From contig CAXXFL010000001.1 of assembly GCA_963674965.2 (NCBI GenBank), forward strand, positions 768,001-832,000: DNA of 64,000 nt, given 5' to 3'. This document shows, in pieces, positions 14,695-63,971 of this stretch (the first letter of the stretch is position 1; each line of letters starts with the position of its first letter). Origin of the DNA: a bacterium (lineage in GTDB: Bacteria > RBG-13-61-14 > DATKZS01). A model generated the notes under the pieces. It was given only the letters and a program-made list of their open reading frames with translations, ran no database searches and was not told the DNA's origin. The translations under genes were made by a program, and so were the position numbers.

Positions 14695-14853
14695 TAATAG
14701 GTTTCCTCCTTAGGGCTTTAAAGCCCGCGCTCCAGATTACAAATTATAGCCCATGGATACAAGGCCGTCACCCCCGAGGGGCTGTTTTTATTAACGCCTA
14801 TTGGAGCTTAACCTTTTCCCATGCGCTTTATTTTATCCCGTGCTTATAATCCC

Positions 14854-15594: not shown

Positions 15595-15665
15595 TCAGCC
15601 AAGAGGAGGACAATCCCGGATAGGCAAGATTATTGTTTCTCGATATGCCAAGTAATGGCCACTCC

Positions 15666-16439: not shown

Positions 16440-16453
16440 ATCCAGCTCTTTCC

Positions 16454-17419
16454 CTACTTCTTGTAAAACACCCTGGTGTCGCAAATGTGGTCGTGCAGGG
16501 TCCTTTTTTCGTCGTCGAAGGCGGCGATGATGTATCCGATAAAGCAGGTGATCTGGCTAAGCATTTCGGCGAAATGCCTGCCCAGGGCGCGCCAGTAGGT
16601 GATCCGGATCCCGTCGGGCCGCAGGACTATCAGGCCGCAGGCCATTTTGCCCGGCGTGGCGGCGTATTTGCCCAGGAAGAAGGTGGTGTACGCCGCCGGC
16701 ACGGCAATCTGTAACAGGAAGGAGATCATGAAAAGAAGGATGGGGAAAGGAGCGGGCCCGTTTTCAAGCCCCGAGGAAAAGCTCGTCTGCGCGATTGAAA
16801 AAGGCATCTGTAATAAGAAGTTAACGAAGCCCAGTAGAATATTGTCCAGGAGTTTGGCGGCCACCCTTATCCAGAAGCCGCCATATTTCAGTATTCCCGG
16901 CCGGTCCGCTCCCTCTCGAAGGCGCTGGAAGAAAATGTTCTTGCACTGGGCGCACACGAACTCGCCCTGGTAATTAATCGTCTCGTCGGCGGGAAAGGGA
17001 CATCCGCACTCGGCGCAGAAGACGTCATCTTTCGAGGCCGTTCCCGCCAGTACGCCGTAAGCTTGCCATTGGCTCATGCCCGGGCGCCAGACCAGGTCGC
17101 CGGCCTTGATTTTTCCCGCCGCGACCATGGCCTGAAATTCGCGGTCGCTTACGGGCCCCTTTTTCAGGCCCTGGGACACGTAATACCACTCATCCCGGGC
17201 GGTCGGACCCGCCGGCTCTTCGACCTTGCTTTCGGAAGGGGTCCCCGATGGGGCGGCCTCTTTGGGGGCTTTGACCTCGGAGTACTCCTTCCATCCGTCC
17301 ATGCCCTTGGACCAAACCAGGGTGTCGGGCGCGATGGTCCCCTCGTTGACCAAAAGCTCGAACTCGACTTCGTCAACGGGACCTTGTCTTTTGCCATCCT
17401 TGGCGTAATACCAGTTCAC
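16454..17419 (-). CDS. 2x GYF_2 - Zn finger - RDD protein (array copy 1)
   Basis: Two WYY..GPV..VW..GM..W repeats; CAEC..CAQC; RVAAKLLD, ATPGKM, RTLHD. Confidence 0.9.
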   Translation of the reverse strand: MNWYYAKDGKRQGPVDEVEFELLVNEGTIAPDTLVWSKGMDGWKEYSEVKAPKEAAPSGTPSESKVEEPAGPTARDEWYYVSQGLKKGPVSDREFQAMVAAGKIKAGDLVWRPGMSQWQAYGVLAGTASKDDVFCAECGCPFPADETINYQGEFVCAQCKNIFFQRLREGADRPGILKYGGFWIRVAAKLLDNILLGFVNFLLQMPFSIAQTSFSSGLENGPAPFPILLFMISFLLQIAVPAAYTTFFLGKYAATPGKMACGLIVLRPDGIRITYWRALGRHFAEMLSQITCFIGYIIAAFDDEKRTLHDHICDTRVFYKK

Positions 17420-27809: not shown

Positions 27810-28035
27810 GCCTTACCTCCATGGAGATTTTAGCGCCTCGGGGCGCGGGCTGAAAAGCCGACAAGCCGCCCCGCTCGCTCGGTCTATTCTATTACTTCGC
27901 CGTCCATTTTGCATGCCCGCGAAAAACGCGGGATTGGAGTCCCCTATTTTTGTTGACCGGCGCTTGCCGGCGCGTTAAGCTTTGCCTGTGGATGGCCGCC
28001 CGCTTTGGCGGCGAGACCCGTTACAAGGTGATAAT

Positions 28036-30657
28036 ATGGCTGACTCGAAAGACCTGGTTTTCGCGAGGGACAGAAACCTTTTGCTCGGCGTTATCGCGGT
28101 GCAGCTGAGTTTTATCTCTCCGTCTCAATTGGCCTCGGCCGCGGCCATGTGGGCCAATGACGGCGCGTCGGACCTGGGCAAGATACTTCTCGAGCTTTCC
28201 TTCCTCTCTCCCAAAAATCTCGAGGTCATCGAGAAGCTCCTCGAGAACCGGCTCGAGGCCCATGGGGAGGACCCGGCCAAGGCCCTGGCCTCCATCGGCG
28301 GCGACGGCGCGGTGCGGGCGTCCTTCGCTGGGGCCGAGGAAAAAATCCTCGGACGCGAGACCGCCCGGGAACGAAGCGGCGGCTCGCCGACCGCCTCGAT
28401 AGATAAGACTGACAATATCACCATCGAGCACCCGGGAAGGTACTCGATAAAAGGAGAACACGCGAGGGGGGCCATCGGCCGGATACTGATCGCCTTTGAC
28501 GAGCACGTGGGCAGGGAGGTGGCGCTCAAGGAATTATTGGCCGGAGACAACGCGGCCGGTTCCTCGGAGGGCCGCTCTCCTTCCCGGGCCTCGGTCGAGG
28601 CCGAGGCCAGGTTCCTGCGGGAGGGAAGGATCACCGGGCAGCTCGAGCACCCCGGCATCGTTCCCGTCTATGAAATAGGAAAAAGGCCGGACGGAGAAGT
28701 CTACTACACCATGAAGATGATGAGGGGGGCCACCCTGGCGGAGGCCCTCAAGTCCTGCGCCTCCCTTTCCGAGAGGCTCCAGCTTCTGCCCAAGTTCCTG
28801 GCCATGTGCCAGGCCATCGCCTTTGCCCACGCCAAGGGCGTGATCCATCGCGATATCAAGCCGGCCAACATGATGATCGGCGAGTTCGGCGAGTGCGTGG
28901 TGCTCGACTGGGGCCTGGCCAAGGTCAAGGGGCTGCGCGACATACAATCGCGGACCCTGGAGAAAGGGTACACCCTCCTTCAGGACGGCGACATAGTGGC
29001 CACGGTGGCGGGCTCTCCGATCGGCACTCCCGCCTACATGAGTCCCGAGCAGGCGGACGGCCGCATCGAGGACATCGACGCCAGGAGCGACGTCTGGGGT
29101 CTGGGCGCCATTCTTTTCGAGCTACTGACGGGTCGGTATCCCTACACGGGCCGGACGGCCCACGAGGTGATGATGAAGGTGGCCACCGAGCCGCTCGACG
29201 ATATCTCGAGGATCGAGCCGCACGCCCCGGCCGAGTTGAAAGAAATCTGCGAGAAGTGCCTTAACAAGGACCGCGACGAAAGGTACCAGGACGCGGGCGA
29301 CCTGGCCCGCGAGGTGGAGAAGGTGGTGGTGGTCATCTTCGGCGCGGGTTCCTTCGTCGAGGTTCGGGAGGAGAAGAACTACGCCCTCGAGCAGATGCGC
29401 ATCGCTGAGGAACAGCGCGCCATCGCCGAGGCCAAGGAGCGGGAGGCGAGGGAGAACCTGGCCGAGGCTTATCTGCAATACGGACTGGGAGCGGAAAAGG
29501 AGGGGGACTGGAGTCGCGCCAAGATATATTTCGCCAAGTCCCTGGCGCTCACGGGCCGGACCGACGCGAGGAAGGCCATCTGCCGTGAGCCTATTAAGGC
29601 GGCGAGCAAATTCTCGGTCATGTCCTATTCCGAGGCGGGCGAGTCCATTACCGCCGTTTATCTTTCGAGGGAAGGCAAATACGCCCTAACCGCCGGCGGC
29701 GATTACAGCCTCTCGCTGTGGTCCATCGAGGGCGGCGAGTACATGCGGACCTATACGGGCCACTCCAACGAGGTCCGGGCCATCGGCCTTTCGATGGACG
29801 GAAAGCTCGTGCTGGGGGCGGGCGACGACTCGAAGATCAACGTGTGGCGGACCAACAGCACCAATTTCGAGCGGGAGTTTATTGGCCACCAGGGGACGGT
29901 CAAGGCCGCCTGCTTTTCTCCGTCGGCCAAGTACGTGATCTCGTCGGGGGCCGACTCGACCATCCGCATGTGGTCCATGGAGAACGGCCAGTGCCTCTTC
30001 GTCTTCCAGGGCCACAAGGGACCGGTCAACTCGGTGGAAATCTCGCCGGACGGAAAGCACCTTATCTCGGCCGGAAGCGATAAGACGGTCAAGCTCTGGT
30101 CGCTTCAGAGCGGCAAATGCATCCATACCTACGAGGGCCACCGGGGACCGGCGCTGGGCGCGCATTTCGACCCCCGCCGCGAGTACGCCGTGTCCTTTGG
30201 CCGTCGGGTGATACTGTGGTCTCTTAAATCCGGGAAGAGGGAGAGGACCTTCGAGGGTCACGCCGAGGGCGTGGTGGCGGCGTCTTTCTCTCCCGACGGC
30301 ACGCACGTGGTCACCGCCGGCTGCGCCGAGCGGGAGCACTTCGGCACCTGCGTGGCCGGGGACTTGAGGCTCTGGTCCATCAAAAGCGGCGAGCTGCTTC
30401 GCGCCATCGTGGCTCACGACCGGCAGGCCATGGCCGTGAGGTTCATGCCCAGCGGAAACCTGCTGGTCTCGGCCGGGGCCGACAGCACAATCAAGACCTG
30501 GCCCATCGACTGGGAAGTGTTCGGCCTGGAAGGGGACCAGATTCTCGCCCGTGCCCAGCGGGAGGCGGGTCTTGTCCTTGACGGCTTCAAGCTCGAGTCA
30601 CTCGTGCACGAGCCCGTGGAGGATGAGTCCGCTCCCGATCTGCCGCCGTCCATATAA
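28036..30657 (+). CDS. Hanks-type Ser/Thr protein kinase with C-terminal WD40 repeats
   Basis: VALK, LEHPGIVPVY, IHRDIKPAN, DWGLAK, GTPAYMSPEQ, SDVWGLG; repeated GH...D..IxxW units. Start ATG 28036. Confidence 0.95.
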   Translation: MADSKDLVFARDRNLLLGVIAVQLSFISPSQLASAAAMWANDGASDLGKILLELSFLSPKNLEVIEKLLENRLEAHGEDPAKALASIGGDGAVRASFAGAEEKILGRETARERSGGSPTASIDKTDNITIEHPGRYSIKGEHARGAIGRILIAFDEHVGREVALKELLAGDNAAGSSEGRSPSRASVEAEARFLREGRITGQLEHPGIVPVYEIGKRPDGEVYYTMKMMRGATLAEALKSCASLSERLQLLPKFLAMCQAIAFAHAKGVIHRDIKPANMMIGEFGECVVLDWGLAKVKGLRDIQSRTLEKGYTLLQDGDIVATVAGSPIGTPAYMSPEQADGRIEDIDARSDVWGLGAILFELLTGRYPYTGRTAHEVMMKVATEPLDDISRIEPHAPAELKEICEKCLNKDRDERYQDAGDLAREVEKVVVVIFGAGSFVEVREEKNYALEQMRIAEEQRAIAEAKEREARENLAEAYLQYGLGAEKEGDWSRAKIYFAKSLALTGRTDARKAICREPIKAASKFSVMSYSEAGESITAVYLSREGKYALTAGGDYSLSLWSIEGGEYMRTYTGHSNEVRAIGLSMDGKLVLGAGDDSKINVWRTNSTNFEREFIGHQGTVKAACFSPSAKYVISSGADSTIRMWSMENGQCLFVFQGHKGPVNSVEISPDGKHLISAGSDKTVKLWSLQSGKCIHTYEGHRGPALGAHFDPRREYAVSFGRRVILWSLKSGKRERTFEGHAEGVVAASFSPDGTHVVTAGCAEREHFGTCVAGDLRLWSIKSGELLRAIVAHDRQAMAVRFMPSGNLLVSAGADSTIKTWPIDWEVFGLEGDQILARAQREAGLVLDGFKLESLVHEPVEDESAPDLPPSI

Positions 30658-34182: not shown

Positions 34183-34959
34183 CTATCCGGGTTCCTTCTC
34201 GGCCGTGACCGGGTTTTTAAGCTCGCCCACGCCCTCGACGGACACGACGATCTCGTCGCCCGGCTCCATGGGCCCGATGCCGGGAGGTGTGCCGGTGGCG
34301 ATAACGTCTCCGGGAAAAAGAGTCATCACCCGGGAGATATGCTCGATAATTTTAGGGACGTCGAATATAAGCTCCCTGGTGGTCGAGTCCTGGACCGTCT
34401 TTCCGTTAAGCACGGCCATTACCCGCAAGTTGGCCGGGTCGAGCTCGGTCTCGATCCAGGGGCCGATGGGGCAGAACCCGTCGAATCCCTTGGCCCGGGA
34501 CCACTGCCCGTCCTTAACCTGCAGGTCCCTGGCCGTTACGTCGTTCACGCAAGTGAAGCCGAGAATATAATCATTCGCTTCTCCGGCTTTCACGTGTCTG
34601 GCCTTTCGCCCGATGACTATTCCCAGTTCCGCCTCGTAGTCGACCCGCCTGGTCAATCCCCCGTAAGGATAGGGGATGGGATCGCCCGGGCCTATGACCG
34701 TCGCGCTGGGCTTTAAAAAGATGATGGGCTCCTCGGGAACGGGCACGCCCATCTCCCTGGCGTGGTCCCGGTAATTAAGCCCCAGGGCCACCACCTTGGA
34801 GGGACAAACCGGGGCCAAAAGATCGACCTCGACCGCGCTCGCCGCCGATCCGGTCCTTGCCAGGCCGCCGAAAAGGTCGCCCTCGATAAACTCCACCTCC
34901 GAGGCGGAGAGTATTCCGTATTTAATCGAGCCGCCGAGGCGGCATCTTATCAGTTTCAT
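34183..34959 (-). CDS. Fumarylacetoacetate hydrolase (FAH) family protein
   Basis: GLNYRDHA, FLKP, DYEAELG, NDVTARDLQ, RAKGFD, PGDVIATGTP. Confidence 0.95.
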   Translation of the reverse strand: MKLIRCRLGGSIKYGILSASEVEFIEGDLFGGLARTGSAASAVEVDLLAPVCPSKVVALGLNYRDHAREMGVPVPEEPIIFLKPSATVIGPGDPIPYPYGGLTRRVDYEAELGIVIGRKARHVKAGEANDYILGFTCVNDVTARDLQVKDGQWSRAKGFDGFCPIGPWIETELDPANLRVMAVLNGKTVQDSTTRELIFDVPKIIEHISRVMTLFPGDVIATGTPPGIGPMEPGDEIVVSVEGVGELKNPVTAEKEPG

Positions 34960-35562: not shown

Positions 35563-37365
35563 TTAGAGCTTTTCCCCGCTTTTCTCTTTCTCGTATCTTG
35601 CCCGCCGGGCCTTTAAATAAGCCGGGATGGGAACGTCCCACCAACCCACGGCCGGGCTGCCCGAATGGGGATATTGCCGATTTACGATGACCTCGACCAG
35701 CGCCGGTCCGCCGGCCCTGATGGCCCGCTTGATGGCCGGGCCTACCTCCCCCGGCTTTTGCACCCGCCTCGAGTTCCATCCAAAGGCCTTGGCCGCGGCG
35801 GCGAAATCGGGGGAATAGAGCTTACCCGACGGGTCCGTGAAGTCCGTGCCTATGGCCCTTCCCTCGCCAAAGGCCGCCATTTGCAGGTCCTTGATGGCTA
35901 TCCACCCCTGGTTGTTGTAAACCACGGCCACCACGTCCGCGCCGATCTGTTTGGCCGTTGCCATTTCCTGCATGGTCATCATGAAGTCGCCGTCCCCCAC
36001 CAGAGCGGCCACCACCCGGCCGGGCCGGGCCAGCTTCACCCCGATGGCCGCGGGCAAGGCGAAGCCCATGGTCGAGAAACCGGCCGCGCTTATGCAGGTC
36101 CCGGGCTCGTCGAAGGGAAACTCCTGAAGCACCTGGGCCTGGACGTTGCCCGAGCTGGTCACCACGAAGGCGTCCATGGGCAGGGCCTCCCGCGTCTCCC
36201 TCAAGGCGCGCGAGATGGTGACGGGCGACTTCCTCGAGGACTGGAGCCTGGCAACGTGCTTTGACCACTTGTCCTTATGCTTTTTCAGCTCCTTGACGTA
36301 ATCGAGTTTCCGGTAATCTCGATCCGACAAGGACTCCGTGAGGCTTTCCAAAAGGGACGCAAGGGTGGACTTGGCGTCTCCCACGATCCCCACCTGGACG
36401 GGATAGTTCTTTCCTATCTCCTGCGGGTCTATGTCCACGTGGATGAGCTTGGTGGGGGGAATGGAAAAGGTGGCGCCGTCCTTGTAGCTGGAGGAAGTCT
36501 CGTCGGCGAAGCGGCATCCCACGGCCAGGATCACGTCGGCGGTCCGGGCCATGGCGTTGCCCACGGTCGTTCCCTTTGACCCGCCCAGCCAGGCGGAAAG
36601 AGGATGGGTCTCGGGGAACGATCCCTTTCCCATCAGGGTCGTGATAACCGCCGCGCCCAGGACCTCGGCCAGGGCCTTCAATTCGGGCTCGGCGCCCGCG
36701 GACCTTATTCCGCCGCCCACCAGGATGAGCGGCCTTTTCGCCTTGGCCAAAAGCGCGGCGGCGGCCTCGATCTGGTCCGGGTCTCCCATCACCCTGCCGC
36801 CGGGAAGGCGGGTAGCCGGGTCGGGAATCTCGACGTCGGCGGCCCCGGCCTGGACGTCCATGGGCAGGTCGATAAGGACCGGTCCCCTCCTGCCCGTCAT
36901 CATGAGGTTAAAGGCCCGGTGCATGATGGTGGGTAGCTGGGCGGTCGAGTCGGCCACCCAATAGCGCTTGACCAGGGGCTCGAGCACTCGAGAGAACTCG
37001 TGGTCGTGCCGCCGCTCGATCTCCTGCAACAGGCCTTTTCCCCGCATGTGGACGTGGGCGCCTCCGGTTACGATAAGCACCGGGATGGAATCGACGTAGG
37101 CGTTGCCGGCCCCGATGGCGGTGTTGATGGCGCCCGGTCCGATCGAGGTGAACACGGCCAGGGGCTTGCCGCTTGCCCGGAAGTAGCCGTCCGCCATGTG
37201 GACCCCGGCCATTTCCTGCATGCAGGGAAGCACGCGGATTTTCTTTCGCCCTATAAAGGCGTCGCACAGGCTGAGGTTGCCGTGTCCGGGTATGGCTATG
37301 ACGTAAGGGACACCCTGCTTTACCAGGTATTCGGCCACTATTTGTCCGCCGGTTAGTTTCATCAT
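35563..37365 (-). CDS. ThDP-dependent enzyme, acetolactate-synthase superfamily, IolD-like
   Basis: AIPGHGN, QE, TSIGPG, LQEIE, GDGDF..YNN, and C-terminal WWDVP as in IolD-type ring hydrolases. Confidence 0.9.
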   Translation of the reverse strand: MMKLTGGQIVAEYLVKQGVPYVIAIPGHGNLSLCDAFIGRKKIRVLPCMQEMAGVHMADGYFRASGKPLAVFTSIGPGAINTAIGAGNAYVDSIPVLIVTGGAHVHMRGKGLLQEIERRHDHEFSRVLEPLVKRYWVADSTAQLPTIMHRAFNLMMTGRRGPVLIDLPMDVQAGAADVEIPDPATRLPGGRVMGDPDQIEAAAALLAKAKRPLILVGGGIRSAGAEPELKALAEVLGAAVITTLMGKGSFPETHPLSAWLGGSKGTTVGNAMARTADVILAVGCRFADETSSSYKDGATFSIPPTKLIHVDIDPQEIGKNYPVQVGIVGDAKSTLASLLESLTESLSDRDYRKLDYVKELKKHKDKWSKHVARLQSSRKSPVTISRALRETREALPMDAFVVTSSGNVQAQVLQEFPFDEPGTCISAAGFSTMGFALPAAIGVKLARPGRVVAALVGDGDFMMTMQEMATAKQIGADVVAVVYNNQGWIAIKDLQMAAFGEGRAIGTDFTDPSGKLYSPDFAAAAKAFGWNSRRVQKPGEVGPAIKRAIRAGGPALVEVIVNRQYPHSGSPAVGWWDVPIPAYLKARRARYEKEKSGEKL

Positions 37366-37529
37366 ATCCCCCATCATTCGAGTCTCGCGGCGCAAGTCGC
37401 GGGTCTCCTCCCGCCTTGCGTCGCCCGGTCATTTTATAGTATGGATTAGGAGCGGGCAAGGCGGCGAGGACGTCTTTGCCGTTTTCGGCCGGCTTCTAGT
37501 TCGGCGCCGTCGCAAGTAGTGGAAGCAAA

Positions 37530-52745: not shown

Positions 52746-53402
52746 ATGAGCAACGAAGATTCGGGCAACAACAACAACGATAAAAGCGCCAAACAGAGGA
52801 TTCTTGACGCGGCGGTCAAGACCTTTGCCCAGCTTCCCTATCAGTCGGCCAGCACGCGGATGATCGCCAAAGAGGCCGGCGTCGATCATCCCCTTATCCA
52901 TTACTATTTCGGCACCAAAATGAACCTTTTAATGGCCGCCAGCGCCGTGGTTCACGAGGAATTCCAGAGTCAGCACCTCAAATGGCTCGAGGGCTTGAGC
53001 GTGGTTCATCCGCGAGACGGGCTGTCCACCTACCTTGACCGCCTCCTGGATTATGGATTCACCCGTCCCGAGCCGGTCCAGATAGTCATCCTCAATATGG
53101 TCCAGATAGGAAAACGAGGGTCAGAATCCATCCGCTCCGATTATATTATCAAGCACATCCAGATGACCGCCGACACCCTGCGTGAAAAACTGCCTCTAAA
53201 AGGCGACCCCGAGGAAATTACCGCTTTTCTTCAGTGCTTCCATAACCTGGTTATCAACTTCCTGGGCAGCAGGGAATGCCAGGCCGCTTCCCTTGGCATG
53301 GACCCCGACTCGGACCAATATAAAAAATGGGTCAAATCCGCCCTTATGCTCGCCTTTTTGCCCTGGCTGGAAAAGCTGGTGTTCGTAACCGATAATGATT
53401 GA
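52746..53402 (+). CDS. TetR/AcrR family regulator
   Basis: RILDAAVKTFA..STRMIAKEAGVDHPLIHYYFGTK. Confidence 0.93.
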   Translation: MSNEDSGNNNNDKSAKQRILDAAVKTFAQLPYQSASTRMIAKEAGVDHPLIHYYFGTKMNLLMAASAVVHEEFQSQHLKWLEGLSVVHPRDGLSTYLDRLLDYGFTRPEPVQIVILNMVQIGKRGSESIRSDYIIKHIQMTADTLREKLPLKGDPEEITAFLQCFHNLVINFLGSRECQAASLGMDPDSDQYKKWVKSALMLAFLPWLEKLVFVTDND

Positions 53403-53540: not shown

Positions 53541-55190
53541 ATGAAACACGATTACCCCGTTATTGACGCCGACGTCCTTATCATCGGCGGTGGAAGCGCC
53601 GGCGCCATGGCCGCCATCCGCGCCAAGGAGGTCGATCCCCACCAGGAGGTGGTGGTTTTCGAGAAGGGCCACGTCAAGTACTCGGGCTGCATCGCCCGGG
53701 GCATGGACGCCCTCAATATCGTGGCCATACCCGGCCTGGACACTCCCGAATTGTACGTCGAGTCCAACGGCATCGCCTGCCACGGGGTCATGGACGAGCC
53801 CCAGGCCCTGGTCATGGCCCAGAGGAGCTTTGCCCTTCTTAAAAAACTCGAGTCCTGGGACGTGTGCTTTCCCCTCGATGAAAAGGGCAATTACGAGGTG
53901 CTCCAGGTCCATCCCAAAGGCAAGTTCTGCGTTACCATGAAGGAACCCGAGCTGAAAACCATCCTTGCCAAAAGGTGCCTCGAGCTGGGAGTTCGGGTGG
54001 TCAACCGCACCATGGGCATGCGTCTCATCAAGAACGGCGGGGCCGTCACCGGCGCCATCGGCATGAACGCCCGCACGGGCGAGGTAATGGTATGCCGGGC
54101 CAAGTCGGTCATACTCAGCTCGGGAGGAACGGCAAGGTTCGGCCTGCCCAACAACGGATACCTCTACGGCGTGTACGACTTCCCCGGCAACACCGGCGAC
54201 GGGTACGTCATGGCCTACAAGGCGGGGGCCGAGCTCTCGGGCTTCGAGTACACCTGTATTTACTACATCGTCAAGGACATTAACGCGCCCCTTCTTTACA
54301 TCACCCTCACCAGGGGCGCCCACCTGTTCAACGCCTTTGACCAGGCCTTCCACGAGGAACACCCTGGGATTCCCATGATGCACGACGAGCACCAGGCCAA
54401 CAGGGGCCCCATGCGCATCCGCCTGGACCATCTGCCCGAGGACAAGATACGCGAGGTGGAGGAGCTGCTCTTCTCCACGGAAAGGCCGGTGCAGGAAAGG
54501 TTCTACGAGGGCCGGGGCGTGAATTTCAGGTCGGGCGAGATCGAGCTTTGGCCCACCGAGTGCTTCCTGTGCGGCGGCCACGGCCAGACCGGCGTTCGCG
54601 TTAACGTGAAGGCCGAGACCACCGTGCCCGGCCTATACGCCGCGGGCGACACTTCCCTGGTGGCAAGGGGACACTTGACGGGGGCCTTCGTCTACGGCGA
54701 GATAGCCGCCGAGAACGCCACCGAGTACGCGGCGTCAAAAGGCCGCGTCGAGATCGACCATGGCCAGGTCGAGGATTTCATCCGGGACCGCGACTCCCGT
54801 CTCGGCTCGGGCGCGGGTCCCATTCCCATCGAGGAGTTCGAGTACAAGGTCCGCCGCATGATCAACGATTACATCGTTCCTCCCAAGAACGACTACAAGC
54901 TGAACCGGGCGCTTTGGTGGATGGACCGCTTCAGAAAGGAGCTTTTCGAGGTGGTCAAGGTCAAAGACAGGCACGACCTGTTCAAGACTTATGAGGTTGA
55001 GAACATCATTCAATGCGCCCTTATGAGCGCCCTGGCCTCGCGCGAGCGCAAGGAGAGCAGGTGGGGCCTTTGGCACTACCGCTCGGACTACCCGAAAATG
55101 GACGAAGCCTGGAGAAAGCATATCGTGTTGACCATGGGCGCCTCGCCCGAGGACGTCAAAATAGCCCACGCTCCCGTGGTCACGCTGTGA
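53541..55190 (+). CDS. SdhA/FrdA/AprA-superfamily flavoprotein (AsfA/AprA-like clade)
   Basis: IIGGGSAG, EK..VKYSGCIARGMDALN, PGNTGDG, GLYAAGD, RKESRWG..HYRSDYP. Confidence 0.9.
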   Translation: MKHDYPVIDADVLIIGGGSAGAMAAIRAKEVDPHQEVVVFEKGHVKYSGCIARGMDALNIVAIPGLDTPELYVESNGIACHGVMDEPQALVMAQRSFALLKKLESWDVCFPLDEKGNYEVLQVHPKGKFCVTMKEPELKTILAKRCLELGVRVVNRTMGMRLIKNGGAVTGAIGMNARTGEVMVCRAKSVILSSGGTARFGLPNNGYLYGVYDFPGNTGDGYVMAYKAGAELSGFEYTCIYYIVKDINAPLLYITLTRGAHLFNAFDQAFHEEHPGIPMMHDEHQANRGPMRIRLDHLPEDKIREVEELLFSTERPVQERFYEGRGVNFRSGEIELWPTECFLCGGHGQTGVRVNVKAETTVPGLYAAGDTSLVARGHLTGAFVYGEIAAENATEYAASKGRVEIDHGQVEDFIRDRDSRLGSGAGPIPIEEFEYKVRRMINDYIVPPKNDYKLNRALWWMDRFRKELFEVVKVKDRHDLFKTYEVENIIQCALMSALASRERKESRWGLWHYRSDYPKMDEAWRKHIVLTMGASPEDVKIAHAPVVTL

Positions 55191-55200
55191 GGAAACCGAC

Positions 55201-56808
55201 ATGAGCCGACTCAACCTTCTCGAAGCCCTTACCGACAATATAGTCATCGATCCCGCCAAGTGCATTTTCTGCGGCGAGTGCGTCGAGGTCTGCGTCCTGG
55301 ACAACCTCCGCATGAAGCTCGCGCCCTGCCGCGCCGCCTGCCCCCTCGGGGTCAACTGCCAGGGGTACGTCCAACTGGTCAACAGGGGAGAAGACGCCAA
55401 GGCCCTGGCCGAGCTGATGAAGGTCCTGCCCTTTCCCGGGACCTTGTCCCGCGTGTGCACGGCCCCCTGCGAGAACGCCTGCCACCGCAAGGAGCGGACC
55501 GGCGAGGCCGTTTCCATTCGGGGAATAAAAAGGTACCTGGCCGATTTGGACGACTTCATCGAGAGGCCTTTGCCCGAGATGGCGGAGGCATCGGGCCAGT
55601 CCGTCGCCATTATCGGTTCCGGACCGGCCGGCATGATGGCGACTTACGATCTGAGAAGAAAAGGGCACGCGGTCACCGTCATCGAGGCCGAAAGAGAGGC
55701 GGGAGGAATGCTCAGGTGGGCCATCCCGGCCTTTAACCTGCCCGCCAAGGTCGTGGCCGCCGAGATCGAAAGCCTCCAACAAATGGGCGCGTCCTTTCAG
55801 CTCGGGACCAGGGTGGGCAAGGACCTCACCCTCGAGGAAATAAAAGACCGGCACGACGCGGTTATCGTGGCCGTCGGGTGCGGCGGACACCTGAAGCTGA
55901 ACCTCGAGGGCGAAGACCTTGGCGGCGTGTATCACGGGCTGCCCTTTTTGCGGGACGTGAGGGCGGGAAAGCCGCCTCAAATGGGCGGCAAGGTCGTGGT
56001 CATAGGAGGCGGCAACGCCGCCGTGGACGCGGCCCGGACGGCCCTTCGGCTGGGGGCCGACTCGGTTACGCTCGTGTCCCTGGAAAACGAGGACGAGTTG
56101 CCGGCTTTCGCTGAGACGGTCGATATAGCCCGCGAAGAAGGCGTTGTCCTCGAGCACTCGTGGGGGACCCTCGAAATAGCCGGCAAAAACGGCAAGGCCG
56201 TAGCGGTACGTCTGCAAAGGTGTCTTTGCGTCTTTGACGGGGAGGGAAAGTTCAATCCTTCATTCGACGCCTGCCAGATAATGGACCTTCCGGCCGACCA
56301 GGTTATCGTGGCCATTGGCCAGCGACGCGACGCGTCCTGCCTCGAGGGCATGGGGATCGAGCCGGCCGAGGCCGATCCCGTGACCAAAGCCACTTCCGAT
56401 GAAAAGGTCTTCCTCGCGGGCGACTTTATCGGCGGACCGTCCTCGATTATCGAGGCCATGGCCTCGGGACGCGCCGCCGCCGAGTCGGTGGACCTGTTCC
56501 TGAAAGGGGAACACCTGAAATACGGGCGCTCCTATCCCGGTCCCATCGAGCTCGAGTTCGAGATCGACGAGTCGCGAGGATCGGGCCTTTCCCGAATCAA
56601 GCCCAAGCACAAAATTTGCAAAGGGAAAGGCGACTTCAAGGAAACGGCCGCGGCCATGACCACGAAGCAGGCCAGGGACGAGGCCTCCCGCTGCTACTCG
56701 TGCGGTTCACCCTTCGGCAAGTACCGCACCTGCTGGTTCTGCCTCCCCTGCGAGGTCGAGTGCCCCGAGCAGGCACTATACGTCGAGATCCCTTATTTGC
56801 TGAGGTGA
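55201..56808 (+). CDS. GltD/NfnB-like FAD/NAD(P)H Fe-S oxidoreductase nested inside a split 2[4Fe-4S] ferredoxin
   Basis: N-terminal CIFCGECVEVC; APCRAACP..RVCTAPCENAC; GSGPAG; GGGNAA; EASRCYSC; C-terminal CWFCLPCEVECP..IPYLLR. Confidence 0.9.
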   Translation: MSRLNLLEALTDNIVIDPAKCIFCGECVEVCVLDNLRMKLAPCRAACPLGVNCQGYVQLVNRGEDAKALAELMKVLPFPGTLSRVCTAPCENACHRKERTGEAVSIRGIKRYLADLDDFIERPLPEMAEASGQSVAIIGSGPAGMMATYDLRRKGHAVTVIEAEREAGGMLRWAIPAFNLPAKVVAAEIESLQQMGASFQLGTRVGKDLTLEEIKDRHDAVIVAVGCGGHLKLNLEGEDLGGVYHGLPFLRDVRAGKPPQMGGKVVVIGGGNAAVDAARTALRLGADSVTLVSLENEDELPAFAETVDIAREEGVVLEHSWGTLEIAGKNGKAVAVRLQRCLCVFDGEGKFNPSFDACQIMDLPADQVIVAIGQRRDASCLEGMGIEPAEADPVTKATSDEKVFLAGDFIGGPSSIIEAMASGRAAAESVDLFLKGEHLKYGRSYPGPIELEFEIDESRGSGLSRIKPKHKICKGKGDFKETAAAMTTKQARDEASRCYSCGSPFGKYRTCWFCLPCEVECPEQALYVEIPYLLR

Positions 56809-56889: not shown

Positions 56890-57345
56890 TCAATCCACGT
56901 CCACCTCCTCTTTACATTGTCTGCACCTTTTGGCGCCGCGGAAGAGGGGGTAGCCGCAGCTTGGGCAGTGGTATCTTTTTTCCTCAGCCTTGACCCAGGC
57001 CTCGGTCCCCATCTCGCGCCACTCGGGAATGGCCCGGAGCATGACCCTCTTGCCCACGGGCATGGGAAACTTCCGGATATGCTCGCAAGGGAAGTCGTCG
57101 CACTGGTGACATCCCTCGATGCCCTTGGCCTGGACGCAGCTCTTGATGGCGCAGACCTTGCAGAAGCCGAAGACGTCGTCCGACAGGCAGCCCTTGCAAT
57201 GAAGGTCCTCGGGCCTGGTACCGTACACCGTGCAAAGACGCTCCTTGAATTTCTCGTTGCCGTCCCTGTCCGCGATCAGGATTCCGCAGACGCCGCAATA
57301 GAGCCCGCATGGAGCGAGCAGGTCTTTATTAATCGTCATATCCAT
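56890..57345 (-). CDS. DUF3795 Cys-rich protein
   Basis: APCGLYCGVC, CKGC, CAIKSC, CHQCDDFPC, CPSCG..CRQC. Confidence 0.88.
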   Translation of the reverse strand: MDMTINKDLLAPCGLYCGVCGILIADRDGNEKFKERLCTVYGTRPEDLHCKGCLSDDVFGFCKVCAIKSCVQAKGIEGCHQCDDFPCEHIRKFPMPVGKRVMLRAIPEWREMGTEAWVKAEEKRYHCPSCGYPLFRGAKRCRQCKEEVDVD

Positions 57346-57362
57346 CTCCTTGTCCGAAAGCT

Positions 57363-58910
57363 CTACGATTGTTTGACCAGCCAGAACGAGGGCCGGGACT
57401 TCTCCCCATCCCCCGGCGCCTCGCCCGGCGTTAGTGAATTCACGGAGCAGCCCAGCCCGCGGAGCACGGCCTCGAGCCGATCATGGGCCGCTCCTTCCCC
57501 GGGACCCACCACGATCACGCGCATATTCAGGCCCAGGCCCACCGCCGTCTGCAGTTCCTGAAGGTGTCTTAATAGCGCGTCCCTGTCCGTGACCAGGGTG
57601 GTCCGGTAGCCCGGAGAGGCCAGCCGAGCGCCGATGGCAAAGGGAAGGCCCGGCCCGGACAGGTACTTTCCGTTCATGATATGCAGACCCTTGTTGGCGG
57701 ACGCGCTGAAAAAGGCGCCGGCCATGGCCCGAGGCTCCACTCCGTCAACAACTATCCTGTCTTTGTTTGTAAAGGAGTCGGCAAGACCCTCAAACAGGCG
57801 CGCGTGCTTGGGGTCCGCCGCTGTTATTTTTTCGCGGGCCGATTTTCCCGCCCCCTTTACCTTGTTCATCCAGTCGGGCCAGGACGCCTCTTGCAAGTCG
57901 ATTTCATCGAGAAAGGAAATAGGGTCGGCGTTAACGCGGACGCCGGCTGGGATGAGTCCGTTCAAGGCGGATGGATCCAGCTCGACCTGCACGATATCTC
58001 CGGAAAAGGCGCCCATTGATTCGATCAGGTCCATGATCTCGGGGTCCACGCCGATCACCAGCAAGAGGTCGGCCTCGGCCAGGATTGCCATGCCGTCCTC
58101 ATCGCCGGCATAGGTGGCGATCAAGCCGCAATAGGCCGGGTCGGCGCCGCTCATGGCGGCGGAACTGGTGATGGACGCCAGAGCGGGCAGGCCCAGCCGG
58201 TTAAGCCGGTCCCGAAGTTTCTCATGCCGGCCAGGCCTTCCCATGCCCTGACCGATCAAGGCGACGGGCCTTTGGGCGGCCGCGATCGATCGCGATCCCG
58301 CCTCGACCTTTTCCTTTTCTCCGGGCACGCCTCCGCGGGACCTGGTGTTCCTGGCCGGCGGCGTTATTTTGGCCGCCTTTTCCTGCGTCAGCTTTCCCGT
58401 CTTGAACAGGACGTCCACGGGGACGTCCAGGTGGACGGGACCGGGCGCGTCGGCCAGGGCCTCGCGCAGGGCCCGGTTTATCATCTGAGGGACCCGGTCC
58501 CAATGATAGACGATGGCGTGCCACTTGGTGATGGGCGCGAAGATTTCGTCCTGGTTGCATCCCTGCAGGTTCTCCTGGTGCGGCTTCATCTTCCAGCTTT
58601 GCACCTGAGGAGCGACGGATATGACGGGCAGATAGTTGAACCATGCGTCCATCAGGCCCGCCACCTCGTAAACCACGCCCGCGCCCACCGTGCACATCGA
58701 GACGGCCGGAACGCCCGAGGCCGCCGCGTAGCCGCTCGCCATGATGGGGACCGCCGTCTCGTTCCTGAGCGTGACCAGCTCGAGATCCGGACGCTCGCTA
58801 ACCGCGTCGTAGACCGAGCACATCTGCCCTCCGATGATGGAGAAGACGTAACGCGCGCCCTGGTCCGCCAGGGCCTTAACCAATAACTCGCCTCCCGTCA
58901 GCCTGGCCAT
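57363..58910 (-). CDS. ThDP-enzyme paralog with intact Pyr domain but degenerate diphosphate-binding domain
   Basis: LTGGELLV, IIGG, RNE, TVGAG, PGPVHLDVPVD; the GDG..NN motif is replaced by DRD..VG; short C-terminus. Confidence 0.85.
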   Translation of the reverse strand: MARLTGGELLVKALADQGARYVFSIIGGQMCSVYDAVSERPDLELVTLRNETAVPIMASGYAAASGVPAVSMCTVGAGVVYEVAGLMDAWFNYLPVISVAPQVQSWKMKPHQENLQGCNQDEIFAPITKWHAIVYHWDRVPQMINRALREALADAPGPVHLDVPVDVLFKTGKLTQEKAAKITPPARNTRSRGGVPGEKEKVEAGSRSIAAAQRPVALIGQGMGRPGRHEKLRDRLNRLGLPALASITSSAAMSGADPAYCGLIATYAGDEDGMAILAEADLLLVIGVDPEIMDLIESMGAFSGDIVQVELDPSALNGLIPAGVRVNADPISFLDEIDLQEASWPDWMNKVKGAGKSAREKITAADPKHARLFEGLADSFTNKDRIVVDGVEPRAMAGAFFSASANKGLHIMNGKYLSGPGLPFAIGARLASPGYRTTLVTDRDALLRHLQELQTAVGLGLNMRVIVVGPGEGAAHDRLEAVLRGLGCSVNSLTPGEAPGDGEKSRPSFWLVKQS

Positions 58911-58920
58911 GCCCGCCTCC

Positions 58921-60756
58921 TCATCCCTGGATAAAGCTTCTGTAGATGTAGCCGCCGCGCTCGACCGCTCGATGGAACCCGTCGGACCGGCTCTTCCAGG
59001 TCCCGGCCATAACGTTCAGCGGACTAAGCTCGACCCCGTCGAACTCGACCAGGGCGAAGGATATGATCGCGTCTGGATAGTTGGTCTTGTCGGTGATCAC
59101 GTTGAGAAGGGCCGGCTTGCCCGATTTGGCGGCCCTGTCGTAGGCGGGCACTATATCGTCCGCTTTTGTTACCGTCTCCGAGTAAAAGCCGAAGCCCCTG
59201 GCTATACCCGCGTAGTCGATCTCGGGCAGGTCGGTCCCGACGTAATTGCAGGCGTACATCGAGGTCTGGGCGCAGCGGATCATGTTCCAGGCCGAGTCGT
59301 TGTTGATCACGATGATGATGGGAAGTCCCCGTTCGGCGATGGTCTCGAGTTCCTGCACGTTATAAAGCATGCTGCCGTCGCCCGTGCAGAGCATGACCCG
59401 CCGGTCCGGGTTGGCCAGTTGCATGCCCACGGCCGCCGGCACGCCCGCCCCGAGGGCCGCCATTCCGAAGGGGAAATACATCTGTCCGGGCTCGAGACTG
59501 GGCGCGTACATGGCCGCGTAAAGGGCCGTGTTGCCGCCGTCGATCACCATGAGCACCTTATCCGCGAGGACCCTCTCGCCCAGGGCGTGAGCCAGCCGGC
59601 CCTGGTGGATTTGAGGCCAATCCCGGTAGGCTTCCTTTAACAGCCGCGCCCTCCTGGCCTTTTTCATGGATACAAGTTTCTCCCTCCAATCCTTCCAGGC
59701 GGAAGGCGGTGTGAAACCCCGCCGGTCCATTTCCTCCCCAAGCTGGGTCAAGAAGGTCCTAACGTCCGCCCTGACCGGCACGCTCGGGCTGACGTTAAGC
59801 CCGATCTGGAGAGGGTCCGTATCCACGTGTATGAACTTGATCTTGCCCGACCAAAGCGGCGGAAGCCCGAAGCCCTCGAGCCCGCCAAAGGCCGTGCCCA
59901 GGGCCAGCACAAGGTCGGCCTTGCGGATGGCTCGGTGGAAGACCTCCCCCGCCGCGTAGCTGGGACCGCCTATGTAACACTCGTGTTCCGAGGATATACA
60001 ACCCATGCCCGCCATGGTGTGAGTCACGGGAATCCCGGACCTGGAAAGAAAAGACGCCAGCTCTTCCTCGGCCTCGGATCGCTTCGAGCCGGCGCCGCAA
60101 AAACATAAAGGCCGCTTTGCCTTGGCCAGGAGGTCCATCGCCTCCCTTACCGCGTCCGGCTCGGCCCTCATGCGGGGGGGCTTGAACGCGGGGGGCGTCA
60201 GCCGGGAGAGGAGCGAGGCGGGGTCCGTCTCGGCCGCCTCGGAAAGGAGTCTCTCCGGCACGTCGATATGGACCGGACCGGTCCGTCCCGTCACGCTCTC
60301 GGCCGCTCCCCTGGCCAGGAGACGAGGAATATCCTCGGCCGTCTCGGCCCGGGCGCTCCATTTTGTGACCGGCTTGAAGACCGCCGTCTGGTCGAACCTT
60401 CGCCTGTCCACCCCCTTGTTGGCGTCGGGAAGACGGCCGTCGCAAAGGGAGATCGAGATAAGCGGAATCTTGTCGGCCCAGGCGTTGGTCACCGCGCTCA
60501 CCTGCGCCAGCGAGCGGCCGCCCGAGCCGGTGACCACCGCGCTTAAGGCCCTCGAGCTATAGGTATAGGCGTTAGCCATGGCTGCCGCGGCGGTCTCGTC
60601 CCTGGCCTTGACCAGCTGGAGGTCGTCGCCCGAGGCCGAGTCGATGACCTGGCCCAGGCGTCCGGTCCGGTTGTCGTCCACCGTAAAAACGTGGTCCACC
60701 CCCAGGTGAAGCAGGGTCTGTAAGACCAGTTCCGCTCCGATTACGGGTCCACCCAT
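58921..60756 (-). CDS. ThDP-enzyme paralog with intact PP domain and divergent Pyr domain
   Basis: TGDGS..INNDSAW intact; N-terminal TVDDNR and RRRFDQ replace the usual G-rich loop and QExDQ. Confidence 0.88.
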   Translation of the reverse strand: MGGPVIGAELVLQTLLHLGVDHVFTVDDNRTGRLGQVIDSASGDDLQLVKARDETAAAAMANAYTYSSRALSAVVTGSGGRSLAQVSAVTNAWADKIPLISISLCDGRLPDANKGVDRRRFDQTAVFKPVTKWSARAETAEDIPRLLARGAAESVTGRTGPVHIDVPERLLSEAAETDPASLLSRLTPPAFKPPRMRAEPDAVREAMDLLAKAKRPLCFCGAGSKRSEAEEELASFLSRSGIPVTHTMAGMGCISSEHECYIGGPSYAAGEVFHRAIRKADLVLALGTAFGGLEGFGLPPLWSGKIKFIHVDTDPLQIGLNVSPSVPVRADVRTFLTQLGEEMDRRGFTPPSAWKDWREKLVSMKKARRARLLKEAYRDWPQIHQGRLAHALGERVLADKVLMVIDGGNTALYAAMYAPSLEPGQMYFPFGMAALGAGVPAAVGMQLANPDRRVMLCTGDGSMLYNVQELETIAERGLPIIIVINNDSAWNMIRCAQTSMYACNYVGTDLPEIDYAGIARGFGFYSETVTKADDIVPAYDRAAKSGKPALLNVITDKTNYPDAIISFALVEFDGVELSPLNVMAGTWKSRSDGFHRAVERGGYIYRSFIQG

Positions 60757-60789: not shown

Positions 60790-61376
60790 TCAGGCCCCGT
60801 CCATTCCTACTGATTTGATCAACAAGTCTATGGATTCCATGTATTCCTCGAGAGTAAGGTAGTCGTATTCCAAAGAAAGGTTGACGGCCATGCCCACCAC
60901 CAGGCCGACCAGCACCCGGCCGATGCCTTTGACCGGCAGGTGCTCGGGGACCCTTCCCTCCTCCTTGGCCCGCTCGAGGAGCCGGGCGATCAGTTCCATG
61001 ATGGCCTTATCGTAAATCTGGAGCTCGGCCCGCATGTCCGCGTCCCGGGTCATGATGGGTATGAGCATGCACTTGACCAGATGGGGGTACTGGGCGTTGA
61101 TGAAATGATAGTGCAGCTCGACCACCTTGCGTACTCCCTGGTAGGGGTCGTCGTAAAGCTCCATGGTCCTCTCGACCAGGTTGATGGCCAGGCGGCGCGC
61201 CTCCCGGAGAATCTCGATAAAAAGTTCCTTCTTTCCGCTGAAGTGGAGGTATATGGTCGCCTCGCTCACTCCCGCGGCCCTGGCGATCCTGGCGGTGGTC
61301 GCTCCTCGTAACCCTCCTGGGCGAACACGTGGGCGGCCACCTCGAGTATCTGATTTTTCCTGTCCTCGCCGCTCAT
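60790..61376 (-). pseudogene. TetR regulator with a 1-bp frameshift in the HTH (or sequencing error)
   Basis: One frame gives MSGEDRKNQILEVAAHVFAQEGYE; adding one base at ~61305 continues GATTARIARAAGVSEATIYLHFSGK into ORF 60790..61269. Confidence 0.85.
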
Positions 61377-61452
61377 TCTTTTCGCGGTTTTTTTGATTTT
61401 TTCTGGCAATATAATTCGGTCCTTTGTCTCGTATTGTTCCCGCATTTTATTT

Positions 61453-61493
61453 GTGAGCAATTACTCACTAACATAGGGAAAAAAGAATGTCAA
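61453..61493 (-). promoter_or_regulatory. Candidate TetR operator and -35 box
   Basis: GTGAGCAATTACTCAC (61453-61468; 14/16 palindrome); TTGACA on the minus strand at 61488-61493. Confidence 0.6.
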
Positions 61494-62537: not shown

Positions 62538-63971
62538 CTGAACTTTAGAACTTTTCGTCATGGTTTGCACCTATAACCATCAAGCAGCCTCCTTGAGGGG
62601 CGCAATTTCGTCGGGTTTGGGGTCGGAATGGAAACCGGGAGAAATTCGCAAAGCCTTGTAGAAAGCGCGTCGGAGCCTGCCCACCGCCGGCGGCCCGGCG
62701 GGGATCCACCACGGCTCGGCCTCGATCTTTTCCGCGTCCGGGACGCTCAGCGCGAGCATGCCCAACAGGCTGTATGCGACCAGGCACAGGTTGGCGTGCC
62801 GCTTGATCGCGGTGAAGGACCTCTGACGGTAGTCGCCGAACCCGCCGGTGGTCTTCACTTCGCGGAACAACTCCTCGATCTTCCAGCGACCCGAATAAAT
62901 CTCCAGGCCCCGGGCCGGGTCCATTTCGACGTCGGTGGTGAAGAACACGTTCATCTTTTTACCGGAGCGTTGCGGAAAGATGATCACAAGGATGGGCCTG
63001 TCTCCGAGGGTGACGCTGGGGATCATGACCGACACGAAGGCCTCGACGGTCACGGTCTTGCCGTAAATACTGGCCTTGATCTTTTCGCGCTTCGATCTTT
63101 TCAACCACAGTTGTTGGGGGCTGAACTTCTTGCCGCGCTTGGGCGGCCTTCCCGGACCATTCTTCCTTTTGGGCAATTCGTAAAGGGCGGCGTTGGAGCG
63201 GAGGCGGCTGATCAGGACCACCTCTTTGCCGTCGAACTCGAGACCGGCCAGCTTGGCCTCGGCGTAGAGGTTGTCCACCACCAGGACCAGTCTTCGAGCG
63301 GGCCAGGAGAGTCTCTTTATCATCATGGCGGCCAACTCGATCTTGGTTTTGAACTCCCATCCCTTCTCGCAAGCCTTTTGCGGCACGAACAAGAGCGCCG
63401 AGAGCGGGAAGGCGAACCACTTGCCCCCGCGCTCCCAAAGCAGCGCCATCGCCACCCAGCAGTGTCCGAGCACGCGTCGCTTTTGATGGCCGGGGTTCTT
63501 GTCCGTCGGGTCCGGGTAGTAGCCAAGTCCGAAGAACTTCTTGCCCCATTTCTTGACCAGGGCGTCGTCGATGGCGACGACGATCTCGTCCATGATTTCG
63601 AGGCGTTCGGACAAAAGGTCGAGCAGGGTCTGGGATACTTGCTTGCACGACCACCGGCCCTTGCGAAGGAATGCGTAAGGCGTGGTCCAGTGCATGATGG
63701 CGTGGACCTGGGTGAGGCGCATGACCTCGGTGACGCGGTGCTGGAGACCGAACAGCGCCGCGTGGGCAATGATGAAGGTCTGGAAGTGCTCGAAACCCGG
63801 CCCGGTGAAACAGTTGACAAACACGAGCAAGAGCGGCAACATAAAAGCCTGAGCGTTCATCGGCATTCACTCCCGCGTAATGACCAAGCCACACACTTAT
63901 CATTATACGGGAAAAACTGATGAACGCTATTTTTGTTTGGCTGAACATGGTCAAAAAGTTCTAAAGTTCAG
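62538..63971 (-). mobile_element. Insertion sequence, IS701-like (DDE)
   Basis: 18-bp perfect terminal inverted repeats CTGAACTTTAGAACTTTT (62538-62555; 63954-63971) around one transposase ORF; no target duplication seen. Confidence 0.92.
62580..63866 (-). CDS. DDE transposase (IS701/IS4-superfamily type)
   Basis: VVAIDD, VVDNLYA, SRLRSN, YSGRWKIEELFREVK. Confidence 0.93.
   Translation of the reverse strand: MPMNAQAFMLPLLLVFVNCFTGPGFEHFQTFIIAHAALFGLQHRVTEVMRLTQVHAIMHWTTPYAFLRKGRWSCKQVSQTLLDLLSERLEIMDEIVVAIDDALVKKWGKKFFGLGYYPDPTDKNPGHQKRRVLGHCWVAMALLWERGGKWFAFPLSALLFVPQKACEKGWEFKTKIELAAMMIKRLSWPARRLVLVVDNLYAEAKLAGLEFDGKEVVLISRLRSNAALYELPKRKNGPGRPPKRGKKFSPQQLWLKRSKREKIKASIYGKTVTVEAFVSVMIPSVTLGDRPILVIIFPQRSGKKMNVFFTTDVEMDPARGLEIYSGRWKIEELFREVKTTGGFGDYRQRSFTAIKRHANLCLVAYSLLGMLALSVPDAEKIEAEPWWIPAGPPAVGRLRRAFYKALRISPGFHSDPKPDEIAPLKEAA

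Follow-up and report, generated by a model that had tools for sequence, protein, structure and literature searches.

Reciprocally degenerate paralogues of a thiamine diphosphate enzyme, encoded by adjacent genes, are predicted to form a single-site heteromer

Results

Domain and motif anatomy of L and S

A 64,000-nucleotide stretch of bacterial DNA (contig CAXXFL010000001.1, positions 768,001 to 832,000; hereafter the window) contains two adjacent genes for thiamine diphosphate (ThDP) enzymes, here called L and S, whose complementary active-site losses are the subject of this analysis. The preliminary description of this DNA had placed a 611-aa and a 515-aa ThDP gene 10 bp apart, in agreement with the open reading frame (ORF) coordinates (Table 1), and all motifs that it named for both proteins are present in the translations. 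L, S and an ORF for a DUF3795 protein run head to tail on the minus strand. The short GGAGG-bearing spacer before the S start makes translational coupling of L and S likely, and the DUF3795 gene is probably co-transcribed with the pair in the window. The host genome holds one S and seven other ThDP-family frames. Current annotations call both genes “acetolactate synthase large subunit” or “thiamine pyrophosphate-binding protein”.

In decarboxylase-like ThDP enzymes, each ThDP sits between the diphosphate-binding (PP) domain of one chain and the pyrimidine-binding (Pyr) domain of the other. L and S both match the Pyr (TPP_enzyme_N), middle (M) and PP (C) families of Pfam above the gathering cut-offs of 26.8, 30.4 and 21.9 bits, respectively, and the strengths of these matches are mirrored between the two proteins. 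The scores of L are 54.7 (N), 113.9 (M) and 124.6 bits (C), and those of S are 82.6, 62.4 and 25.6 bits; S is the stronger in N, and L in M and C. The C-domain match of S is partial and covers profile positions 13–80 of 151.

The translation of L contains VFTVDDNRTG, TGSGGRS, DRRRFDQ, ARDET, TGDGS and INNDSAWNM. Its ThDP-diphosphate/Mg site is intact (G459-D460-G461 and N486-D487, a motif of the GDG-X(24-27)-NN type), and these residues are invariant in 29 orthologues, whose alignment has 70 invariant columns in all. The middle domain of L is highly conserved, as is a C-terminal tail reading TD..N.PD...SF..VEF.G, and its Pyr domain is relaxed. L Glu54 aligns with the catalytic Glu of benzaldehyde lyase (BAL). 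S contains SIIGGQ, LRNET, TVGAGVVYE and VTDRDAL, and its very strongly conserved Pyr domain includes Glu51, TVGAGVVYE and PQVQSWKMKPHQENLQ. S keeps the PP fold and lacks GDG, NN, the C-terminal tail and the G-M loop ahead of the GDG region; the G-M loop holds the V shape of the cofactor. In a residue alignment, the S segment TDRDA lies under SGDGS of E. coli acetohydroxyacid synthase (AHAS) I, and no GDG-X-NN motif is found in S. At the position expected for NN, S reads IVVGPGE, and the protein ends ~95 residues earlier.

Neither protein was assigned to a characterized enzyme by the NCBIfam scan. Neither L (best score 267 against a cut-off of 539) nor S (best score 169 against 538) reached any equivalog, and no acetolactate synthase (ALS) model, TIGR00118 and PRK equivalogs included, reached its cut-off for L or S; against the TIGR00118 cut-off of 538.35, L scored 265.3 and S 169.2. 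Models for 2-hydroxyacyl-CoA lyase (HACL) and oxalyl-CoA decarboxylase (OXC) were also below cut-off for L, with 226.6 against 600 for NF058623 (actinobacterial HACL) and 197.7 against 557 for NF006721. The solved structures nearest L are formolase/BAL (198/196 bits), HACL (175 bits) and cyclohexane-1,2-dione hydrolase (CDH; 170 bits); the nearest to S is E. coli AHAS I (134 bits).

Co-occurrence and reciprocal motif states

Related loci were searched in one-genome-per-species contigs, and deduplication left 40 loci plus the window. A profile search with S returned 31 loci, and in 31/31 a tblastn match to L, at 36–72% identity to the L of the window, lies immediately before S on the same strand. 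The reverse search, with an L profile built from 29 sequences, returned 34 loci; S lies directly downstream in 32 of these, and the contig stops before this position in the remaining two (L045, L062). A distant L-like group of Geothermincolia comprises six loci with an S-like gene next to L in all of them, two being cut by contig ends. Overall, 38/40 related loci, drawn from several phyla, carry both genes with L directly before S and no frame break, some with cuts at contig ends. The spacing from L to S is −8 to +24 nt in 37/39 loci; the two exceptions have 121 and 175 nt. Hosts include the cultured Desulfatibacillum alkenivorans DSM 16219 (L013), Smithella, Syntrophaceae, Desulfobacterales, Brocadia and Anammoxibacter, together with metagenome-assembled genomes (MAGs) of Actinomycetota, Bacillota and Spirochaetes. 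Among 12 genomes of the same class, S orthologues (at least 491 bits to the profile) occur in seven, and one more has an unsplit form (see below); in 28 more distant genomes the S profile gave no score above 254 bits. One MAG (G002) carries two separate copies of the L-S pair on different contigs (L003 and L004).

S also stands as a conserved family in its own right. Protein-cluster searches, confined to a length window, recovered 92 other clusters at 232 bits or more, mostly of 480–540 aa, and roughly two thirds of them have no precomputed PP-domain match. Below this family come 564–583-aa proteins with all three domains, at scores of 214 bits or less. An alignment of 40 S-family members has 45 invariant columns, 38 of which fall within residues 1–166, the Pyr domain; the invariants include Glu51, T74-V-G-A-G78, Y81, E82 and the loop PQVQS..K.PHQE.LQ. 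The PP domain has only four invariant columns, and GDG or NN is found in 0/40 of these members. Wherever a contig spans S, its frame runs open for ~510–540 aa, and this holds across several phyla.

We tabulated motif states for the 40 loci and the window, with an assessable subset that varies by motif. S has the Pyr Glu and TVGAG in 41/41 and neither GDG nor NN in 36/36; L has GDG and N-D in 39/39. The residues that replace GDG in S vary by clade (DKD, DRD, EQN, ETD, DTV, DGE and others), as does the NN position, and many S proteins have K or R at the position aligned with the GDG Asp. In L064–L069, from Geothermincolia/Actinomycetota MAGs, L has Asp at the site of the catalytic Pyr Glu (PLGDIAG or PRGDISG) and S keeps its Glu. 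The organisms of these loci also carry a stand-alone, complete relative of ~575 aa (P0118 type).

Domain conservation, selection and co-divergence

Conservation of the domains is reciprocal as well. Over 300 locus pairs, the mean identity of the Pyr domain is 0.615 in S versus 0.416 in L (S higher in 300/300), and no other part of either protein is conserved as well as the S Pyr domain. The PP domain shows the reverse, with 0.546 in L versus 0.390 in S (L higher in 286/300), and the middle domain follows the PP domain (0.528 in L versus 0.325 in S).

Ratios of nonsynonymous to synonymous substitution rates (dN/dS; Nei-Gojobori, 10 pairs) are 0.49 or lower in every computable domain; three cells of the pair L026-L027 gave no value, and dS exceeds 1, a sign of saturation, in most pairs. 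The pair with least saturation, L016-L018 (dS ~0.43), has dN/dS of 0.108 for L and 0.228 for S, with domain values of 0.06 (S-Pyr), 0.33 (S-PP), 0.14 (L-Pyr) and 0.05 (L-PP). Across the pairs, the values range from 0.02 to 0.18 for S-Pyr and from 0.06 to 0.39 for S-PP. Both genes are therefore under purifying selection, and this selection is relaxed, yet present, in exactly the halves without motifs. Divergence between L proteins follows that between S proteins with r = 0.97 over 496 pairs, a value matched by 0/2000 permutations, and the same subclades appear in the L and S trees. Such co-divergence is the pattern that co-inherited neighbours should show.

An unsplit single-gene relative

In a genome of the same order (G007), the S profile (409 bits) and L (403 bits, 38% identity) match one and the same gene (Table 1). 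Its Pyr domain has a mean identity of 49% to S and 31% to L, its middle domain 47% to L and 21% to S, and its PP domain 40% to L and 21% to S; the L-type tail is also present. The motifs divide in the same manner, with TVGAG and QVQSWKM of the S type, and GGPSY, GDG, ND..YNMIR and SFAKVEFDG of the L type. The G-x-G loop, retained in S, the unsplit form and canonical enzymes, has been lost from L. By its domain make-up, the unsplit relative shows that an S-type Pyr domain and an L-type PP domain, middle domain and tail can make one coherent predicted enzyme. Five further clusters of the unsplit type (P0241–P0245) are 606–607 aa long, at 68–91% identity.

Quick maximum-likelihood trees of the Pyr and PP domains were calculated from 93 sequences with Shimodaira–Hasegawa-like approximate likelihood ratio test (SH-aLRT) support. 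The unsplit proteins, S and L form one group that excludes stand-alone archaeal and actinobacterial relatives (SH-aLRT 90 for Pyr and 86 for PP), and within it the three are a polytomy in both trees. The Pyr tree has a long stem on L (0.55 versus 0.13 for S). The PP tree has a long stem on S (0.73, with internal branches of 0.9–1.4), and L is short-branched there, without resolution. The unsplit relative thus shares the clade of the pair in both trees but is a single gene with no partner nearby, no second ThDP gene being found between positions 3000 and 12000 of L079. It may either predate the duplication or have arisen later by re-fusion.

Among solved structures, the unsplit form is matched best by a protein that its depositors named BbmA (PDB 8x3x; 278.5 bits versus 233.5 for the next), which scores 253 bits against the L profile. 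BbmA differs from the pair in that it appears homo-oligomeric, the PDB listing giving one sequence in four chains. Its function was not found in our literature search.

Structural models

The AlphaFold2 model of S (mean predicted local distance difference test score, pLDDT, of 88.3) has a complete PP-domain fold and no C-terminal lid. A complex of L 1–611 with S 1–385, modelled from our own alignments, scored 0.91 in 3/3 runs, and the best of three controls scored 0.00. In calibration, the mark was reached by 116/157 solved complexes and 2/215 mismatched pairs, counts that are only rough for L-S because our own alignments were used. The runs agree in at least 98% of contacts, with partner pLDDT of at least 87. 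Residues 431–436, 461, 464–465, 490–508 and 571–578 of L touch residues 25–28, 49–52, 76–85 and 112–127 of S; the modelled contacts reproduce the canonical PP-to-Pyr geometry, and the L tail also rests on S. On both sides of this modelled interface, invariant residues are over-represented, with 15/41 S invariants among 55 contact residues of 385 (p = 1.2e-4) and 17/70 L invariants among 64 contact residues of 611 (p = 2.9e-4). A hand count gave no clear enrichment of conserved L Pyr residues at the dimer interface.

Neighbouring genes and possible reaction

Table 1 Features of the L-S locus in the window and the unsplit relative
Feature	Coordinates	Strand	Description
L	58921-60756	minus	611-aa ORF; three-domain ThDP enzyme by Pfam; proposed PP-donating subunit
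L-S spacer	58911-58920	minus	10 nt from L stop to S start; carries GGAGG
S	57363-58910	minus	515-aa ORF; three-domain ThDP enzyme by Pfam; proposed Pyr-donating subunit
DUF3795 Cys-rich protein	56890-57345	minus	151-aa ORF; Pfam 64.4 bits; start 17 nt after S stop
TetR-family gene upstream of L	60790-61269	minus	ORF begins inside the helix-turn-helix (HTH); Pfam TetR_N positions 28-47 only
Unsplit relative	L079:6196-8055 (= G007:C125)	minus	619 aa; matched by both L and the S profile

The genes around the pair recur only in subsets of loci: short-chain dehydrogenase/reductase (SDR) genes in 10, enoyl-CoA hydratases in seven, VOC/glyoxalase-like proteins in four and CMD proteins in four. Acyl-CoA dehydrogenases, a MaoC dehydratase, a CoA ligase, 4HBT thioesterases and ApbA-type reductases occur in few loci each, and TetR, AraC or GntR regulators are found among the neighbours. 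The SDR and acyl-CoA genes hint at a C-C lyase of the 2-hydroxyacyl/acyloin type. Because of these neighbours and the nearest solved enzymes (BAL, HACL/OXC, CDH and BbmA), we infer that a C-C bond adjacent to a carbonyl or hydroxyl is cleaved or formed, perhaps with a CoA thioester as substrate. Our best guess for the substrate is a 2-hydroxyacyl-(CoA), acyloin or 1,2-dicarbonyl compound. We rejected an identity with the acetone-activating TDP enzyme of Desulfococcus biacutus and Desulfosarcina cetonica, which is reported as one protein of 77.6 kDa, encoded in a B12-mutase cluster (PMC4103992, PMC7888143).

The DUF3795 protein had been put forward as a metal/Fe-S partner of the pair. A tblastn search (E < 0.05) of the 40 related loci found no DUF3795 homologue next to the pair, and PF12675 was not among the scanned neighbours. 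With no homologue in 40 loci, the partnership is without comparative support, and we reject DUF3795 as a general conserved partner. A flavoprotein pair on the plus strand (window 53541–56808) consists of an AprA/FrdA-like protein (PRK08275, 546 bits, just below the cut-off of 587) and a GltD-like Fe-S NAD(P)-binding protein (PRK12771, 423 bits). It was likewise rejected as a pathway partner, as no real homologues lie beside L-S pairs elsewhere, where two chance-level GltD fragments of 31 bits were found. A second TetR gene (52746–53402) precedes the flavoprotein pair on the plus strand and has a 38%-identical homologue beside the pair in L004.

The frame of the TetR-family gene upstream of L is open for ~60 more codons upstream (window 60790–61467, minus) and has no start codon; the translation of this extension is unlike TetR helix 1. 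The gene may be a damaged regulator. A DDE-family transposase (62580–63866, minus) lies ~1.8 kb beyond the upstream end of the operon and is adjoined by a 326-aa ORF without Pfam match in a stretch of lower GC (0.47–0.50). Elsewhere in the window, a canonical-looking 610-aa ThDP enzyme (35563–37395, minus), unrelated to the pair and strong in all three Pfam domains, adjoins an FAA-hydrolase-family gene (34183–34959). Four tandem paralogues (13657–17419, minus) each combine GYF_2 with RDD, a further RDD gene lies at 4682–5464, and an 891-aa Ser/Thr protein kinase is fused to a WD40 beta-propeller (27982–30657, plus).

Discussion

L and S are probably the subunits of an obligate heteromer with a single active site, a proposal strongly supported by comparative evidence, and many anaerobic bacteria share this gene arrangement. 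Gene anatomy, motif states, co-occurrence, the pattern of conservation, selection and the unsplit relative are results of the analysis; the physical heteromer, the single site and the type of reaction we infer. The preliminary description had read the complementary degeneration as a heterodimer with one working site and had added the DUF3795 protein as its partner; all comparative tests that we ran fit the heterodimer, and the DUF3795 part fell away. The check that it suggested, co-occurrence of homologous pairs with the same reciprocal losses under purifying selection, came out in favour of the idea (38/40 loci; dN/dS at or below 0.49).

We propose that L and S, as its two subunits, make up a single ThDP-dependent C-C lyase/carboligase, a member of the decarboxylase-like (AHAS/BAL/HACL) superfamily, and that they would have arisen from a homodimeric enzyme through gene duplication and reciprocal loss. 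The sole complete site would be built from the PP domain of L and the Pyr domain of S. L-PP would anchor the diphosphate and Mg through GDG...N-D, and S Glu51 would activate the aminopyrimidine beside the TVGAG loop; the middle domain and C-terminal tail of L probably provide substrate binding and the lid. The mirror site, of L-Pyr and S-PP, would be unable to anchor ThDP and would persist as scaffold. This arrangement predicts one active site per L-S pair, and a dimer of pairs is possible.

Several observations weigh against this proposal. Neither gene is present in 4/12 same-class relatives. In L001 (L001:2700-4813 = G004:C162), an intact 517-aa S is preceded by an L reduced to a C-terminal remnant, measured at 127 aa by tblastn and at ~80 residues when the DNA is read directly, behind unrelated AT-rich sequence. 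No other L orthologue was found in this genome (G004, 97% complete), where the best match has 247 bits, 31% identity and two internal TGA stops; L001 is either a recent break-up of the pair or a join made in MAG assembly. In L031, L is spread over two reading frames. The neighbouring genes vary between loci, and the locus counts are not independent because the majority of loci derive from MAGs and are mutually related. The complex model covered S only up to residue 385, and its score may be a memory of solved ThDP homodimers, since such homodimers of the superfamily exist; the model shows likeness to known dimers, not binding. Finally, the Pyr Glu column of L is Glu in 33/39 and Asp in 6/39 (the Geothermincolia clade). 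The earlier caveat that L keeps its catalytic Glu is thus upheld for most loci, and some activity of an L homodimer through this residue is possible.

The retained Glu also underlies an alternative in which L is the real enzyme, acting as a homodimer or within a heteromer through its own Glu54, and S is a non-catalytic, stabilising or regulatory pseudoenzyme. L has all three Pfam domains above cut-off, and pairs of a dead and an active paralogue are known, such as AdoMetDC and its prozyme (PMC5201418). This alternative is nonetheless unlikely. The S Pyr domain is the most conserved part of the pair, with the catalytic Glu and TVGAG in 41/41 and dN/dS of 0.02–0.18, whereas the L Pyr domain evolves fast (0.416 versus 0.615 mean identity), is without the G-x-G loop and carries Asp instead of Glu in six loci. 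Moreover, the unsplit relative joins an S-type Pyr domain with an L-type PP domain. It is still less likely that both sites work, with the S PP domain binding ThDP or another phosphorylated ligand non-canonically and independently of metal, and with Lys/Arg in place of the Mg-binding Asp, giving one catalytic and one allosteric site or two catalytic sites. The retained PP fold of S, its purifying selection (dN/dS 0.06–0.39), the K or R under the GDG Asp in many S proteins and the mostly retained L Glu are in line with this idea, but the segment replacing GDG and the NN position vary between clades, unlike a ligand site, and S is without the G-M loop. That S is a decaying, functionless duplicate is scarcely credible. 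GDG and NN are lost in S, its Pfam C-domain score is weak and L001 shows a pair breaking up, though it is L that is lost there. Against decay, the S frame is open to ~510–540 aa across several phyla, dN/dS is well below 1, 45 columns are invariant, and orthologues occur in 7/12 same-class genomes.

On the proposal of a heteromer with one complete site, a more speculative extension, which we regard as doubtful, is that the pair is a naturally asymmetric one-site ThDP enzyme whose vestigial pocket (the L-Pyr Glu and the pseudo-PP of S, with Lys/Arg for the Mg-binding Asp) serves as a regulatory or co-substrate (nucleotide/CoA) site. Its reaction may be an anaerobic C-C cleavage or formylation, so far uncharacterised, with acyl-CoA or acyloin compounds as substrates.

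The proposed architecture resembles several known systems and differs from each. The homo-oligomeric relatives (BAL/formolase, AHAS/ALS, HACL/OXC and CDH) share the Pyr-Mid-PP fold and a cofactor site between subunits, but have identical chains and two equivalent sites per dimer, whereas L and S are diverged paralogues, each with half a site degraded. The 2-oxoacid dehydrogenase E1 alpha/beta is a split ThDP enzyme. Sulfopyruvate decarboxylase ComD/ComE and phosphonopyruvate decarboxylase RhiE/RhiF are described as split enzymes with Pyr and PP on different chains from adjacent genes (PMC12141560). In ComDE, RhiEF and E1, one domain per chain gives a heterotetramer with symmetric sites; in L-S, both chains are full length with a vestigial other domain, which predicts one live and one dead site. 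Whereas each chain of a split enzyme is without the other domain, L and S carry all three domains. The trypanosome AdoMetDC/prozyme is reported to be a heterodimer of paralogues with an indispensable degenerate copy (PMC5201418). There one partner is fully dead and the other complete, but in L-S each would be half dead, with the site across the interface. A literature search returned only split-domain ThDP enzymes and no full-length paralogue pair with reciprocal loss, which is not proof of novelty as subscription journals were mostly not covered.

Textbooks present the ThDP enzymes of this superfamily as homodimers in which the two sites are equivalent, and it has long been debated whether these sites need to communicate (half-of-the-sites or alternating-sites behaviour). 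If the proposal is true, L-S would be a natural single-site enzyme with its unsplit relative as a built-in control, and the two together would provide a direct natural test of the need for two-site communication in ThDP catalysis. The pair would also illustrate cleanly how reciprocal loss turns a homomer into an obligate heteromer. For S, the annotation “acetolactate synthase large subunit” is wrong, and it would mislead attempts to express either gene alone. The reaction of the pair appears to be tied to SDR and acyl-CoA genes in anaerobes, among them Desulfatibacillum, Smithella, Syntrophaceae, anammox bacteria and Geothermincolia.

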